Shown in pieces: positions 16,680-46,643 of a stretch of 64,000 nucleotides of DNA. The DNA lies in assembly GCF_934772795.1 (NCBI RefSeq), contig NZ_CAKVMR010000003.1, forward strand, positions 831 through 64,830, read 5' to 3'. Position 1 is the stretch's first letter. Each line of letters begins with the position of its first letter. The translations under genes and the position numbers were made by a program. The stretch comes from an uncultured Holdemanella sp. (GTDB taxonomy: Bacteria > Bacillota_I > Bacilli_A > Erysipelotrichales > Erysipelotrichaceae). The notes below the pieces were generated by a model that saw nothing but the letters and a program-made list of their open reading frames with translations, made no database searches and was not told the DNA's origin.

Positions 16680-18608
16680 ATGGAGACGCTAACACTTCAA
16701 GAATTAGCAGAATTAAAAGGATGTCACAGAGTTAGAATTCAACAACTTGTCACAGAAGGATTTTATAAATCTGTACAAGTTAAAAATTCAAGAGGTAGAT
16801 TAGTTCATGCCATACCTCTAGATCAACTGACAGAAGAGGAACAACAAAAATACTACCAATCTAAGGGTATCTTAAACACTAACATTGAAGTACAGAATGC
16901 TGAAAAGCTGGAGCTTATGAGCACCCAAGAAAGAGAGGAATGTGTTTTTTGGGAAAACGTTATTAATGAATGGCAATCCTTCAGGAATAAAGAAAACGCA
17001 AGAAATAAGAGTGAAGTTGATGAACTATTCATCACAAAGATGAAGTTAGAACATCCTGAGCTTAATTTCTCTACAAGTATTCTTTACCGCAAGTTTAAAG
17101 CTTTAAAAAATGGAGATCTAGAAGGCTTGATTGATAAACGAGGAAAAAAGAAAAAAGGCTACACGAAAATTGATGAACATGTGTGGCAAGTATTCTTGAG
17201 CTTCTTGTTAGATCAAGCAAAGCATCCACTTAGAAAATGCTATCAATATACTCAACTATATATTCAAAATACAGCACCTGAGTTATATGAGGATATACCA
17301 GCTTATTGTACTTTTACAAGACATGTAAAAGCCGATATTCCTGATGCAATCTTAACTCTTGGAAGAGATGGAGATAAGGCATTTGATGATAGATGTGCGC
17401 CATACATACGAAGAACTTATGACAACATGGATTCGAATGACTACTGGATTGGAGACAACCATACAATCGATGTAATTGTTGGGGATGGCGAAAAGACGTT
17501 CAGACTTTACCTAACAGCCTTTATGGATGCACGAAGCGGAATTATGACATGTATCTACATTACAGATACCCCATCATCGCAAGCTTCAATTTATTCATTA
17601 AGACGAGGTATCAAGAAGTATGGAATACCTAAAAATGTTTACTTAGATAATGGTCGAGAGTTCTTAACATTTGACTTTGGCGGTTCAGGACACAGAAAAA
17701 AGAAAAAGGACGAAGATAAATTTACTCCTCCTCCGATTCTTGAACGCTTAGGAATCAATATGGTCAATGCACTCGTTAGAAACGCAAAAGCTAAGATTAT
17801 TGAACGAAGATTCTTAGATTTCAAAAATAGTATTTCTAGATTATTTGCAACTTATACAGGTGGAAATGTAGTTGAAAAGCCTGAGATCTTAAAAGTTGAA
17901 CTTAAAAACGGAAATATACCTGAAAAACAAGCATTTATCAAAGAAATAGAAGAGCTGATTGAATATTACTTGAATTATGAAGAATACAACGGTGCAGTTG
18001 CAGCGGATAAAGGTAAAAGAAAGATTGATGTTTATCAGGAAAACCTACATACGAAGACAACCGCAACCGAAGAGCAGTTAAATCTTATGATGTTAAGATC
18101 CACTCGAGCTCAAAAAGTGACAAGACGTGGCGTTAGTTTGAAGATTGGTGGAACTCAGCTGGATTACTTCAACAATGAATTAATCATGCAGATGCTGAAT
18201 AAGAAAGTTTATCTAAGATATGATCCAGATGATTTATCCAGAGTTAGAGTATATGACCTTGATGATAGATTCATCATGGAAGTTGAAGCAGACAATGTCG
18301 CAGTACTTGAATACGGCGCAAGTAAGGACGAAGTAAAACTTGCGATGGCTAAAACTAGAGAACTTAAGAAAGTTGCGAAGGAAGCAATCAAGGATTCAAT
18401 CATTGCTAATATCGATAGAAATACTGCACTTGAATTGTTGCTGAAATCTGCTAAAGACAACAAAGACAGTGATGTTTCTAAACCAAACTACGATTTAGAG
18501 ATCTTAAATGCGGATGAAAAGCCAATGTTATACAAAGTGCATGATGTGGATTTAGACAAGATGAATATAAACTCAATTAAGCGACAAGGAGGAGATTATT
18601 ATGCTTAA
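16680..18608 (+). CDS. MuA-like DDE transposase
   Basis: WIGDNHTID, YLDNGREF, AKIIERRF catalytic motifs; C-terminal VYLRYDPDDLSRVRVY. Confidence 0.92.
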   Translation: METLTLQELAELKGCHRVRIQQLVTEGFYKSVQVKNSRGRLVHAIPLDQLTEEEQQKYYQSKGILNTNIEVQNAEKLELMSTQEREECVFWENVINEWQSFRNKENARNKSEVDELFITKMKLEHPELNFSTSILYRKFKALKNGDLEGLIDKRGKKKKGYTKIDEHVWQVFLSFLLDQAKHPLRKCYQYTQLYIQNTAPELYEDIPAYCTFTRHVKADIPDAILTLGRDGDKAFDDRCAPYIRRTYDNMDSNDYWIGDNHTIDVIVGDGEKTFRLYLTAFMDARSGIMTCIYITDTPSSQASIYSLRRGIKKYGIPKNVYLDNGREFLTFDFGGSGHRKKKKDEDKFTPPPILERLGINMVNALVRNAKAKIIERRFLDFKNSISRLFATYTGGNVVEKPEILKVELKNGNIPEKQAFIKEIEELIEYYLNYEEYNGAVAADKGKRKIDVYQENLHTKTTATEEQLNLMMLRSTRAQKVTRRGVSLKIGGTQLDYFNNELIMQMLNKKVYLRYDPDDLSRVRVYDLDDRFIMEVEADNVAVLEYGASKDEVKLAMAKTRELKKVAKEAIKDSIIANIDRNTALELLLKSAKDNKDSDVSKPNYDLEILNADEKPMLYKVHDVDLDKMNINSIKRQGGDYYA

Positions 18609-19548
18609 CGTTGCAGTAAAAGAAAGACTTGAGAAATACATGAAAGAAGCTGGTGTTTCTCAAGCGAAGATTGCGCCACTGATTGGCGTGAGTATGACAG
18701 CTCTTTCGCAGTATAGAGGTGGTAAATACAAAGGCGATGTAACAGCAGTAGAAGCTAAAATCGTTGAATATTTAGACACTATTACTGAACAAAAGGAAAT
18801 CAAAGAAAAGGTTCAAACATATAAACCAATGGAAGATTACATTCCTATTTCTATCAGCGAAGATATTTATAAGATGATTAGATATGCTCAATTAAATGGA
18901 GGTATCGCAATCGCCCATGGTGATGCAGGAATTGGCAAAACAAAAGCGGCGCAGAAGTATGTAAGAGAAAATCCAACGCAAGCAATCTATATGGAAATGA
19001 GTCCTGTAGCTGGAACTCTAGGCAATATGCTTAGACTTCTAGCTAGGACACTTAAAATTCCTGAAAGTAGAAACAAGATGGAGTTGATGCTTTCGATTAG
19101 AGATAAGCTTGAAGGAACAAACAGAGTGATCATCATCGATGAAGCTCAACACTTGAAATTATCGGCTCTTGAACAGATAAGAACACTTGCTGATCCAAAC
19201 TCAATCACAGGAACAAAGGGTGTTGGAATCGTGTTGATTGGTAATACAGAGGTCTATTCAAAGATGAAAGGAAAACAGGAAGCACAATTCGCTCAGCTAT
19301 TTTCAAGAATCAAGATGAGCCGATATTATTCAACATCCAATGTTACGGATGATGATGTAGAAAAATTATTCCCAGCGTTAAAACAACAAGGATTGAATAA
19401 AGAATTGAACTTCTTAAAAGGTGTTTGTAAATCAAAATGGGGCATTCGTGGAGCAACCAATGTTTATGAAAATAGCATTAACAATGATGATGTTTCAGTC
19501 AACGGACTCTTTGCCATGGCTAGAACATTAGGAATAGAGGTTATTTAA
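18601..19548 (+). CDS. MuB-like AAA+ transposition ATPase
   Basis: N-terminal HTH, GDAGIGKT Walker A, IIIDEAQHL Walker B; follows transposase. Confidence 0.92.
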   Translation: MLNVAVKERLEKYMKEAGVSQAKIAPLIGVSMTALSQYRGGKYKGDVTAVEAKIVEYLDTITEQKEIKEKVQTYKPMEDYIPISISEDIYKMIRYAQLNGGIAIAHGDAGIGKTKAAQKYVRENPTQAIYMEMSPVAGTLGNMLRLLARTLKIPESRNKMELMLSIRDKLEGTNRVIIIDEAQHLKLSALEQIRTLADPNSITGTKGVGIVLIGNTEVYSKMKGKQEAQFAQLFSRIKMSRYYSTSNVTDDDVEKLFPALKQQGLNKELNFLKGVCKSKWGIRGATNVYENSINNDDVSVNGLFAMARTLGIEVI

Positions 19549-42866: not shown

Positions 42867-43198
42867 TGAATGGTGTAAAGATAATCAATAAGAACGAAGG
42901 AACAAAGATTGACTATGAAATTATTGGAAATAAAATTATTTTCAATGATGAATTAATGTTGAATCTAGCTAAGTATGAACGTGATGATCCAATGCATATC
43001 GACATTTGCATGGATGAATTTGGATGTTTGCGCATGGGACTAGCTAATAATTATGTGGCTCAAATTGATATTTTAGCTAGAAAATACCAATTTGTAGAAG
43101 ATGGTGTGGATGAAGAAGGCCACACAAAATACAACAAGGTAGCAGTTCCTTTTGATATTAAAAATGTAGACATTACATTATGGGGGGTTGAAGAATAA
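42866..43198 (+). CDS. phage hypothetical protein
   Basis: Translationally coupled to neighbours. Confidence 0.65.
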   Translation: MNGVKIINKNEGTKIDYEIIGNKIIFNDELMLNLAKYERDDPMHIDICMDEFGCLRMGLANNYVAQIDILARKYQFVEDGVDEEGHTKYNKVAVPFDIKNVDITLWGVEE

Positions 43199-44277
43199 TG
43201 GAAACAAATTTTGATGCGATCAAGTTAGCAGTTGAAGCAGCAACTGGCGGAAAAAATACAGTCTTATTTGATGATTTAGGAAATCCGTCAATCATGGTAA
43301 GAATTCCTAAATTTAAAATTTCAGATGTAATTCAAGGTGGTTCTAATTCCGTCCATCCAGCTTTTATTGTCAATGGTGTAGAAAAAGATGAGATTTTTAT
43401 TAGCAAGTACCAAAATATCGTAGTGAATGATCGAGCATATTCTTTACCAATGCAAGATCCAAAAGTTTATGTTGATTTTGATACAGCAAGAAAAGCTTGT
43501 GAAAACAAAGGTAAAGGATGGCACTTAATGACGAACGCAGAATGGGCTGCAATTGCATTGTGGTGTAAAAAGAACGGATACTTCCCAAGAGGGAATAACA
43601 ATTACGGAAGCGATGTATCATATCCGCATGAAAAAGGTGTTGAAACCTATAAATATGATGGAAAAACTGGAAGAACTGGAACAGGTTCAGGCCCAGTTAC
43701 ATGGGCACACGATGGTAGCAATTCAGGTATCTTTGACTTGAACGGAAATGTATGGGAATGGGTTGGAGGACTTCGCTTAGTCGATGGTGAAATCCAAGTA
43801 ATTGCTGATAATAATGCAGCATGTGATGCAGATATGAGTGCAAATTCTAGCCATTGGAAAGCGATTGATAAGAGTGGAAACTTAGTTGCTCCAAAATCTG
43901 CTAATACATTAAAGCTTGACTATACAGTAGATCCAGGCACTGTAAATACAGGAAAAGGAGTTCCTAAATTAGTAACTGCTCTAGCACATCAACAAACTAC
44001 TGATGATCCATATGCAGCAGGACAATTTGAAGATATGACAGCAGATGGAAGCATTACTCCGCCTGAAATCTTAAAGGCTTTAGCAATTTATCCTGATGGA
44101 ACAAAAGCAAATCATGGTGATTATATCTATATGAGAAATAAGGGAGAGCGTTTGCCTTTTCGTGGTGGCGGCTTCAATAATTCTAGCAATGCAGGCGTGT
44201 TCGCTTTGACTTTGAGCAACCCACGCTCCTCTTCGTATCACAATGTAGGTTTTCGCTCCGCTTTTGTCGGTCAGTAA
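43198..44277 (+). CDS. DGR target protein; FGE-sulfatase/C-type-lectin fold, putative receptor-binding tail protein
   Basis: ISKYQ, GWHLMTNAEWAAIA, GIFDLNGNVWEW, C-terminal RGG...GFRSA containing the VR. Confidence 0.9.
   Translation: METNFDAIKLAVEAATGGKNTVLFDDLGNPSIMVRIPKFKISDVIQGGSNSVHPAFIVNGVEKDEIFISKYQNIVVNDRAYSLPMQDPKVYVDFDTARKACENKGKGWHLMTNAEWAAIALWCKKNGYFPRGNNNYGSDVSYPHEKGVETYKYDGKTGRTGTGSGPVTWAHDGSNSGIFDLNGNVWEWVGGLRLVDGEIQVIADNNAACDADMSANSSHWKAIDKSGNLVAPKSANTLKLDYTVDPGTVNTGKGVPKLVTALAHQQTTDDPYAAGQFEDMTADGSITPPEILKALAIYPDGTKANHGDYIYMRNKGERLPFRGGGFNNSSNAGVFALTLSNPRSSSYHNVGFRSAFVGQ
44147..44262 (+). repeat. DGR variable region (VR)
   Basis: Colinear, gap-free homolog of 44970-45085 and 45123-45234 at the 3' end of the target gene. 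Confidence 0.92.
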
Positions 44278-44299
44278 TTTTGGTATCAGTGTTCTGTTT

Positions 44300-44317
44300 T
44301 TGCCACGTAAGTGGCAA
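44300..44317 (+). promoter_or_regulatory. hairpin/cruciform downstream of VR (putative DGR target-recognition element)
   Basis: TTGCCAC-GTAA-GTGGCAA, 7-bp stem with 4-nt loop, 22 nt after the target stop. Confidence 0.7.
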
Positions 44318-44321
44318 TCAT

Positions 44322-44358
44322 TCCCACCAGCGATTAAGCTGGTGGGATTATTTTTTTT
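44322..44358 (+). terminator. intrinsic terminator after DGR target gene
   Basis: TCCCACCAGC-gattaa-GCTGGTGGGA followed by TTATTTTTTTT. Confidence 0.8.
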
Positions 44359-44405
44359 ATTGTGTATATTCTTACACATGTTATAATTTACCAGAGGTGG
44401 TAACA

Positions 44406-44906
44406 ATGGATAATCAATTAGGTTCGTATGAAACGCAGCTGATCATACAGCAGGAGGTTTATGATATGTTGCTATATGCCTATCCATTGTTGGATCATTT
44501 TCCAAAGAGTCAAAAATTTTCTTTAGTTCAAGATATTAAAAAAAAGATGGATTCAGTTCTTGAATATGCTATTGCTGCTAATAAAAAATACGCTAAGACT
44601 ACAACACTCGAAAAAATGGATGTAGAACTAGCTGTATTAAAGGTTTATGTAAGATTAGCATTTGACTTGAAATATTTTAAAGGCGAAAACCACTATATGG
44701 AAATGTCTAGAAGATTAGATAAAGTCGGCAAGATGTTAGGTGGTTGGATTAAGGCTGAAAAAGAAAAATCAGGAAATAAAGCTGTTGATAAACCATATGT
44801 TTGTGAGAAATGTGGCACAAGAATAACTCCTAAGTCTTATGAATATTCAATGAAAAATTTTGGTAAATCTCTTTGTTATACATGTCAAAAAAGTCATAAG
44901 GTTTAG
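44406..44906 (+). CDS. avd: DGR accessory variability determinant with C-terminal zinc ribbon
   Basis: YDMLLYAYPLLDHFPKSQKFSL..DIKK...VGKMLGGWIK four-helix signature; start ATG after GAGGTGG. Confidence 0.88.
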   Translation: MDNQLGSYETQLIIQQEVYDMLLYAYPLLDHFPKSQKFSLVQDIKKKMDSVLEYAIAANKKYAKTTTLEKMDVELAVLKVYVRLAFDLKYFKGENHYMEMSRRLDKVGKMLGGWIKAEKEKSGNKAVDKPYVCEKCGTRITPKSYEYSMKNFGKSLCYTCQKSHKV

Positions 44907-44969
44907 ATGAATTGTGAGCCCTTTTTCGCTCCACTCTATTCTTTTATGCTATTTTGGGATTAGGCTATT

Positions 44970-45085
44970 AGCGTTTGCCTTTTCGTGGTGGCGGCTTCAA
45001 TAATTCTAGCAATGCAGGCGTGTTCGCTTTGAATTTGAACAACCCACGCTCCATCTCTGACGATAATAGAGGTTTTCGCTCCGCT
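44970..45085 (+). ncRNA. DGR template repeat TR1
   Basis: Non-coding, between avd and RT; matches VR 44147-44229 except two A positions. Confidence 0.85.
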
Positions 45086-45122
45086 CTAACCCTATAAAGA
45101 GTAATGGGATTGGACTATATGA

Positions 45123-45234
45123 TTTGCCTTTTCGTGGTGGCAATTGGAATAATGGTGGCAATGCAGGCGTGTTCGCTGTCTACTTGAATGACCCACGCTC
45201 CAATTCGAATCACAATGTAGGTTTTCGCTCCGCT
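45123..45234 (+). ncRNA. DGR template repeat TR2
   Basis: AAT-rich; matches VR 44219-44262 except three A positions; followed by spacer to RT. Confidence 0.87.
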
Positions 45235-45398
45235 CTGCTCTTGTAATTAGGTATATGATGGATACGTCTGTCATTTCAAATCAAGGGAATAAAGGAGTCT
45301 AATTCCATGCTGAATAAGCAAAAAAATTAAATAAAGATGAAAACCGATAGTAATGTTAAATGAACTCCGTTAAGCATCTTAAAAATTAGGTGATGATC

Positions 45399-46553
45399 AT
45401 GGCGAAAATAAAGAATGTATATGACTATATCGTTAGTGATGAAAACATATACAAGGCTTATTTAAACGCTCGTAAAAACAAAAGATATAGAAAAGATGTA
45501 CTCATATTTACCCAAAATCTAGAAGCAAATCTAGTTAAGATTCAAAATGAATTAAGAAGTGAAGTTGCTGATTATCCTAAATATAAAGAGTTCTATATTT
45601 ACGAACCAAAGTGTCGTTTGATCCTTGCTCAAGACTTTCCTGAAGTGATAAAACAGTGGGCGTTTTATCAAGTTTTAAGCCCTATGTTTACTAGGATGTA
45701 CATCAAGGATTCCTATGCTTGCATCAAAGGAAAAGGACAAATTGCAGCAGTTAAAAGACTTCATTATTGGCTTAAATTAGTCAATAGCACAAGATACAAT
45801 AAGCTGAAACACGGTTTAGATGTATCCGATCTAAACAAGTGGTATTACTTGAAAATAGACTTTAGCAAATACTTTTATAGAGTAGATCATAAAGTCATGA
45901 TTGATGTATTGAAGAAGAAAATTAAGGATAATCGTGTTGTTAGATGGCTTGCAACCCGCATAGAAAGCCCTGATATGCCTTTTGGTTTGCCTAGAGGCAT
46001 GCGTCCTGAAGATGTTGAAATGAGCGAACGTTTATATGATAAAGGAATGCCAGTGGGCGCTTTGATTTCACAGATGTTAGCGAATGTTTATAATGATCAG
46101 ATAGATCAATATGCTAAAAGGACATTAGGAATCAAGTGTTATATACGCTATCAGGATGATATTGTGGTGCTTTCTGATGATAAGAAACAAATAAAAGAAT
46201 GGCATCAAAAACTAGAAAAGTTCGCAAATAATGTCATGAAAATGGAAATGAACCAAAAGACCTGTATTAGACCAATCAATCAAGGAATAGAATTTTGTGG
46301 TTTTCGCTTATGGGCTACACATATAAAAATAAGGAAGAGCACATCCTTGAGAATTAAAAGGAACTTAAAAGGCGTGATGAAACGATACAATGAAGGAGAT
46401 TGCACTTTAGAACACGCTATGCAAGTAGTTAATTCATATTTTGGGCTGTTGAAACATTGTAATAGTTACGCATTAAAAACAGAAATATTTGGTGATTATG
46501 AAAAAGGAATAGATGGTTGGTTTGTACTGACTAGAAATCAAGGTAACGATTAA
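45399..46553 (+). CDS. DGR reverse transcriptase
   Basis: YEPKCRLI, DSYACIKGKG, YYLKIDFSKYF, GMPVGALISQ..AN, YIRYQDD, IEFCGF; avd/TR context. Confidence 0.93.
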   Translation: MAKIKNVYDYIVSDENIYKAYLNARKNKRYRKDVLIFTQNLEANLVKIQNELRSEVADYPKYKEFYIYEPKCRLILAQDFPEVIKQWAFYQVLSPMFTRMYIKDSYACIKGKGQIAAVKRLHYWLKLVNSTRYNKLKHGLDVSDLNKWYYLKIDFSKYFYRVDHKVMIDVLKKKIKDNRVVRWLATRIESPDMPFGLPRGMRPEDVEMSERLYDKGMPVGALISQMLANVYNDQIDQYAKRTLGIKCYIRYQDDIVVLSDDKKQIKEWHQKLEKFANNVMKMEMNQKTCIRPINQGIEFCGFRLWATHIKIRKSTSLRIKRNLKGVMKRYNEGDCTLEHAMQVVNSYFGLLKHCNSYALKTEIFGDYEKGIDGWFVLTRNQGND

Positions 46554-46643
46554 TTTCGTTACCTTTTAATTATGTTTTAAAGTTCTTTATTTTTCGACTT
46601 TATTTATTTTTTATAGAATGAGCGATGAAAGGAGGAATATGTA

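Follow-up and report, generated by a model that had tools for sequence, protein, structure and literature searches.

A multi-template diversity-generating retroelement with a mosaic variable repeat in a Holdemanella prophage

A textbook diversity-generating retroelement (DGR) has one invariant template repeat (TR), and the non-adenine positions of its variable repeat (VR) are therefore fixed. In Borrelia vls and Neisseria pilS, silent variant cassettes patch one expressed gene into a mosaic by DNA recombination.

The DGR of BPP-1, ordered mtd-avd-TR-Sp-brt, carries a spacer that forms two duplexes: template:primer with the TR 3' end and, after a gap of two bases, the 11-bp cPRT Stop with a strand that lies upstream of the TR. 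A short hairpin and adenines come next (bioRxiv 10.1101/2023.10.23.563531). The 3' entry point is fixed in BPP-1, and the 5' junction needs homology only, of at least 8 bp (PMC3240598, PMC5703328). Beyond BPP-1, two TRs and six VRs are listed for the Stenotrophomonas SKA14 element (PMC6642488), and individual people have been found with multiple TRs, which came from several Treponema clones (PMC4891356). Multi-target DGRs apply one template to many targets, and the accessible parts of their descriptions mention no tandem TR library onto one VR, mosaic VR or shared spacer.

The element described here resembles BPP-1 in gene order, adenine-specific TR-to-VR changes, a candidate hairpin behind the VR and the arrangement of the spacer duplexes (bioRxiv 10.1101/2023.10.23.563531). 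Whereas BPP-1 has one invariant TR, the family of this element has 2–4 divergent TRs on one spacer, all of them apparently donating; its VR is a mosaic, the head (the cPRT-Stop-like duplex strand) lies outside avd and is repeated in each unit, Avd carries a Cys4 extension, and the TR slots also undergo overwriting. Among Bacillota phages, single-TR DGRs with FGE-type C-type-lectin targets share the target family and the head/spacer pairing, with reverse transcriptases (RTs) 40–52% identical, but have one TR and an Avd without the Cys4 extension. With SKA14 and the multi-target DGRs the element shares more than one repeat pair per element, and with vls and pilS a row of non-expressed cassettes leading to one mosaic expressed gene; unlike in vls and pilS, transfer in the family shows the adenine changes that mark an RNA intermediate, and each cassette has putative RT-priming elements. 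Full-text literature searches turned up no description of TRs in tandem arrays, of mosaic VRs or of a zinc finger in Avd, any of which subscription papers, bioRxiv supplements and large catalogue tables could list; the accessible parts of PMC5758913, PMC8144416, PMC6642488, PMC4891356, PMC12875486 and of bioRxiv 10.1101/2024.11.15.621889 and 10.64898/2026.07.21.739853 contain none.

Organisation of the element and its prophage

The window, the whole 64,000-nucleotide stretch of DNA that was analysed, contains a real DGR in the order target-avd-TRs-spacer-RT, a multi-template element with combinatorial VR assembly. Its genes and flanking elements are as follows.

15184–49199: Mu-like prophage with repressors, terminase, portal, sheath, baseplate, amidase with CW_7 repeats and D12 adenine methylase
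16680–18608 and 18601–19548: transposase and transposition protein of the prophage
43198–44277, + strand: target gene in the tail module, 359 aa, with an FGE-sulfatase-like (C-type-lectin-fold) domain
44300–44317, + strand: candidate target-site hairpin 3' of the VR, with a GC-rich 7-bp stem and a 4-base loop
44322–44347, + strand: terminator-like hairpin after the target gene
44379–44387, + strand: extended -10-like element before avd, by consensus match only
44406–44906, + strand: avd, 166 aa, with a C-terminal CxxC...CxxC extension at residues about 133–160 (window 44802–44885)
45390–46553, + strand: DGR reverse transcriptase, an open frame of 387 aa, with YQDD at 46149–46160

The target matches PF03781 (E 1.7e-9), with the VR at the gene's 3' end, as well as phrog_2889 and phrog_5302 (tail protein). 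Across residues 6–357 it aligns with chain A of PDB 5VF4 at E 3.7e-74, the structure of a Thermus aquaticus DGR variable protein (PMC6328139). It is predicted to be a tail-associated binding protein whose tip gets rewritten. The candidate hairpin behind the VR takes its putative function from BPP-1 (PMC3240598); the second base of its loop is not a purine, and there is no exact GRNA match. An element similar to the -10-like one occurs in relatives, and a promoter scan did not flag 44379–44387. Avd matches PF22296 (residues 12–117, E 1.7e-27) and phrog_3206, and the RT matches PF00078 and phrog_1423 and clusters with RTs of A-biased TR/VR loci. A bidirectional terminator-like hairpin (46540–46565) overlaps the RT stop codon.

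The DGR sits between the baseplate genes and the lysin of the Mu-like prophage. Among named relatives of the prophage, the closest is found in Holdemanella. RTs 96–97% identical occur in Holdemanella sp. and Eubacterium sp. records. The RT is present in two of the 11 other genomes of the window's genus, in 3/401 genomes of a family sample and in 3/401 of an order sample, with one genus throughout; the GenBank phage collection gave no match.

Template repeats and mosaic variable repeats

The repeats lie on both sides of avd, and a single spacer follows the last TR.

44147–44262, + strand: VR, TR1-type at 44147–44218, with a shared switch block at 44219–44229, and TR2-type at 44230–44262
about 44900–44955, + strand: collapsed remnant of a further TR unit, with degenerate head, deleted core and retained tail; intact in L006/L108
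44956–44966, + strand: head of unit 1, a cPRT-Stop-like duplex strand pairing 11/11 with 45296–45306
44970–45085, + strand: TR1, a fusion of the relatives' TR-A (5') and TR-B (3'), with its tail at 45085–45095
45106–45116, + strand: head of unit 2, pairing 11/11 with 45296–45306
45119–45234, + strand: TR2, the relatives' TR-C, with VR homology from 45123 and its tail at 45234–45244
45235–45389, + strand: single spacer, with a hairpin at about 45256–45275, putative primer strand 45283–45293 and putative stop strand 45296–45306

The original prediction, made from the window's letters, described a dual-template DGR with three gap-free repeat copies, and these were found at 44147–44262, 44970–45085 and 45119/45123–45234. 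The TRs differ at 23/112 positions, as it had counted by hand, and 15 of the 23 sites have no A on either side. VR 44147–44218 equals TR1 except at 44210 (A>C) and 44216 (A>G), and VR 44230–44262 equals TR2 except at 44230, 44231 and 44236, all template adenines, with 0 non-A differences in either part. Compared with the other TR, each half does show the claimed non-A mismatches: 12 between VR 44151–44218 and TR2, and 8 between VR 44230–44262 and TR1. The switch falls where it had been placed, in the 11 bases common to TR1 and TR2 (44219–44229). A two-donor fit puts 5/5 VR differences at template adenines, and neither TR alone fits (8 and 12 non-A). The first 63 bases of the VR are identical to TR1, with 0/10 adenines changed. 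No further VR or TR copy exists elsewhere in the genome assembly.

Three features go beyond that prediction: the TR-A/TR-B fusion in TR1, the remnant unit at about 44900–44955, and a conserved spacer-pairing head for each TR. TR1 joins the head and 5' part of TR-A to the 3' part and tail of TR-B, with the crossover between about 45036 and 45053, so one unit has been lost. In the term dual-template, the plurality of TRs stands, but the family has 3–5 templates and the two of the window are a deletion product.

The search for tandem TRs in related phages that had been proposed was carried out through scans of viral, genome and metagenome collections, and loci with 3 or 4 units were found (designated by L numbers). 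These units, of 140–150 bases, stand between avd and a single spacer. All 38 distinct template cores are free of stops in the target frame, and their differences sit in variable codons. Donors were counted in 13 distinct loci with a VR and at least two TRs. Duplicates (L008, L009, L108, L122 and repeated fetches), loci without a VR or without an array (L002, L110, L113, L119, L120, L124, L130, L133, L118) and loci with N runs in the VR (L218, L219) were left out, as were the VR-TR hybrids L003, L095, L109, L121 and L015, in which the target gene is joined directly to a TR tail and avd is absent, by VR-TR deletion or misassembly.

Five of the 13 VRs have a single donor, which is TR-A in L006 and L131, TR-B in L111 and L125, and TR-C in L001. 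The other eight are mosaics (by TR number: window 1/2, L004 3/1/2, L005 3/4, L107 3/2, L112 2/1/2, L116 3/4, L126 2/3, L128 2/4). Across 12 gap-free loci, which are kin and whose counts are not independent, 99/261 template adenines are changed compared with 4/1035 other bases, which places 99/103 VR differences at template adenines. The best single TR per VR leaves 64 non-A mismatches in the same loci. Counting against the model, one non-A change is required in L112 and two in L128. The mosaic fit is not free, because, as a control, mutated templates taken from other lineages leave 4.8–15.1 non-A mismatches on average when an array is fitted to them. The own array is best or equal-best for the VR in 12/12 rows, and variants private to an array recur in its VR. 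Every donor segment, mosaic or single, has at least two A changes relative to its donor (21/21). The visible TRs leave the 3' part of the L140 VR and the whole of the L242 VR unexplained.

The proposal that one VR receives sequence from several TRs, so that non-A positions are shuffled in addition to adenine mutagenesis, is upheld by relatives in which each TR appears as sole donor and by the many mosaics. All templates very probably serve as reverse-transcribed donors. In L116, a one-base deletion lies exactly at the TR3/TR4 junction and frameshifts the target end; such a slip fits microhomology annealing. The L004 RT and the avd of L131/L132 have in-frame stop codons, and these elements may for that reason be switched off.

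Templates can also be recipients, as slot A of L113 holds an adenine-mutated copy of TR-B across the whole core within its own flanks, with five A changes and no other. The 5' half of slot A in L001 is likewise A-mutated TR-B. With L113, slot A of L001 and the window's fused unit set aside, TR orthologues drift at 9/66 consensus-A sites and 28/258 other sites, without a significant preference for adenines (p 0.52).

Spacer pairing and the probable route of mosaic formation

The window spacer has the BPP-1 layout: a primer strand (45283–45293), two G, a stop strand (45296–45306), a short hairpin and then an A-run. The roles of both strands, and of A45293 as the priming base, are inferred from this likeness. 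Across 18 loci, 57/58 unit heads pair 11/11 with the sole stop strand, and the five head variants differ by G-U-compatible changes only, bar one terminal mismatch. On the + strand of the window, only 44956 and 45106 pair 11/11 with the stop strand. In single-TR relatives the stop duplex covaries at the same offset (147/168 paired, compared with 126.8 ± 3.8 after permutation, 0/5000). Tail-to-primer pairing is weak and interrupted, at 5–10 of 11 positions, with a permutation p of 0.01 in which 3/14 rows are mis-anchored. Folding of the whole region was no better than that of shuffles (z 0.9). The primer RNA of BPP-1 favours the VR over the TR in pairing (PMC5703328); no such VR advantage was found in the window (VR -8.5, TR1 -9.3, TR2 -14.1 kcal/mol). 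One spacer can serve any TR, because each unit has its own copy of both spacer-pairing strands.

Successive partial retrohoming through the shared spacer is probably the best mechanism for the mosaics. A single RNA would carry avd, the TR units and the spacer. Each unit's head would pair with the spacer and stop reverse transcription, its tail would pair with the priming segment, and RT-Avd could clamp and copy any one unit, a pairing seen in the sequence and a use modelled on BPP-1. The adenine-mutagenised cDNA would enter the VR at its 3' end and finish at any short identity block further 5', usually an invariant framework block. A later event from another TR would overwrite only the 3' part of the VR, with the youngest patch presumably 3'-most. 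In the window, a TR1-type VR would have come first, followed by a TR2-derived patch ending in 44219–44229. The array would turn over by unit loss, fusion and overwriting.

Junction polarity was counted over 11 mosaic VRs, including three with an own spacer per TR (L241, L250, L251). In 9 of 13 junctions the 3' patch comes from the downstream unit and in 4 from the upstream unit (p 0.27), the reversed junctions lying in L004, L107, L112 and L250. The polarity described for the window, with the 3' part from the downstream TR, does not hold as a rule, 4/13 junctions being reversed. An RT template jump or loop-out as the rule falls with it, since a single downstream-to-upstream jump or loop-out cannot produce a reversed junction, while successive partial retrohoming, named last among the original options, accounts for 13/13. 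The occurrence of both polarities therefore favours successive partial retrohoming over a template jump.

It is unlikely that the mosaics arise in single events, with priming on the downstream TR and the spacer clamped to the upstream head, the RT jumping at a framework block or a long cDNA looping out a unit. The head of a distant unit could indeed be clamped together with a nearby tail, since one spacer pairs equally with every head; the mosaic share is high (8/13 VRs), and the nine junctions of predicted polarity include that of the window. The four reversed junctions contradict this route, as do upstream TRs that are sole or 3'-most donors (L006, L131, L111, L125, L004, L107, L112) and mosaics that also arise where each unit of the array has its own spacer and stop. 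Such events may contribute; they cannot be the only route.

Less probable again, and doubtful, is that the spacer-adjacent TR alone is reverse-transcribed and the upstream copies are silent cassettes that donate by RT-independent gene conversion. VRs derived from upstream TRs (L006, L111, L125, L131) differ from them at 7–10 adenines and 0–1 other bases, the at least two A changes in 21/21 donor segments do not agree with faithful copying, and upstream heads vary by G-U-compatible changes only, which argues for a constraint at the RNA level. On the other side, plain recombination would equally give the 63 VR bases that match TR1 with no A changed, and TR-VR recombination with a dead RT occurs in an engineered system (bioRxiv 10.1101/2025.03.24.644984). 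Some patches may for these two reasons be plain recombination. Avd-less VR-to-TR junctions (L003, L095, L109, L121, L015) indicate that DNA-level recombination or misassembly does happen in the family.

An assembly artefact, in which mixed phage populations or the repeats would have been joined into chimeric VRs, is very improbable: G000 is in 133 contigs, the VRs of L218 and L219 contain N runs and the avd-less hybrids may be misjoins, but switch blocks span 11–16 bases with VR-private bases on their flanks, every VR is different and obeys the A rule, a mosaic VR occurs in L107, a Holdemanella strain's genome record, and arrays recur in three collections. For the window in particular, a chimera is unlikely because the shared block has only 11 bases and VR-private bases (44210, 44216; 44230, 44231, 44236) flank it on both sides, interleaved with diagnostic sites.

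Template arrays in the wider clade and their meaning

A further 78 loci with related RTs comprise 65 with a single TR, 10 with no repeat and 3 with arrays. In these 3 arrays and in L232–L236 the whole head-TR-spacer module is repeated 3–5 times, with unit-by-unit covariation. Module arrays (2–5 modules, period about 210–315 bases), in which each unit's head covaries with its stop strand, comprise L137, L138, L232–L236, L140, L241, L242, L249–L251 and L015, of which L015 repeats part of the spacer only. Arrays with own spacers also give mosaic VRs (L241 1/3, L250 3/2, L251 2/3), and L249 is single-donor. Some templates exceed their neighbours by one codon (unit 3 of L232/L235, unit 3 of L241, units 1 and 4 of L249, unit 2 of L015), with no transfer to the VR seen in these loci.

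The CxxC...CxxC extension occurs in 12/14 distinct Avds of array loci and in 0/94 Avds outside the array set. One of the two exceptions keeps the coding sequence for it behind a nonsense codon, and the other, L140, is on a separate branch. Used as a predictor, the extension led to six new loci, with arrays in five and a single TR in one; three further Avd matches without it showed no array. Going by the CxxC...CxxC pattern only, the extension is a candidate zinc-finger-like element; Atlas scores for its identity were below 0.8, and a region search gave one protein.

A quick tree of 40 RTs places the extension-bearing loci on a single branch (SH-aLRT 92), with L140 apart and the shared-spacer arrays nested within that branch (99), beside L015; a second tree is similar, both being quick trees without bootstrap. 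This arrangement suggests that module duplication came first and that all spacers but the last were lost later. The link between extension and arrays counts as one evolutionary event, and the extension may have hitch-hiked. L248 and L234 are single-TR members inside the array clade and are probably collapsed arrays.

Adenine mutagenesis of AAY codons cannot produce W, M, K, E or Q. In the window family, the differences between templates fall precisely on the variable codons and provide W, E, Q or M. Roughly counted, protein variants in the window rise from about 10^11.3 per TR to about 10^12.6 with three-block mosaics, and in a three-TR relative from 10^11.8 per TR to 10^13.2 with mosaics. Non-A bases at which templates differ naturally mark the ends of cDNA tracts, which makes DGR cDNA integration testable by amplicon sequencing. 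For multiplexed directed evolution with DGRs, nature here offers a compact design, in which a row of 140–150-base units shares one spacer. Such elements would presumably be missed or scored as atypical by pipelines that accept only A mismatches to a single TR.

More tentatively, the family may have a clade-wide second, combinatorial tier of diversification, in which one RT-Avd would choose among interchangeable RNA templates through alternative pairing to a shared spacer. The zinc-finger-like extension of Avd would be enabling, the templates would add residues and loop lengths beyond the reach of adenine mutagenesis, and back-writing into template slots would evolve the library itself.
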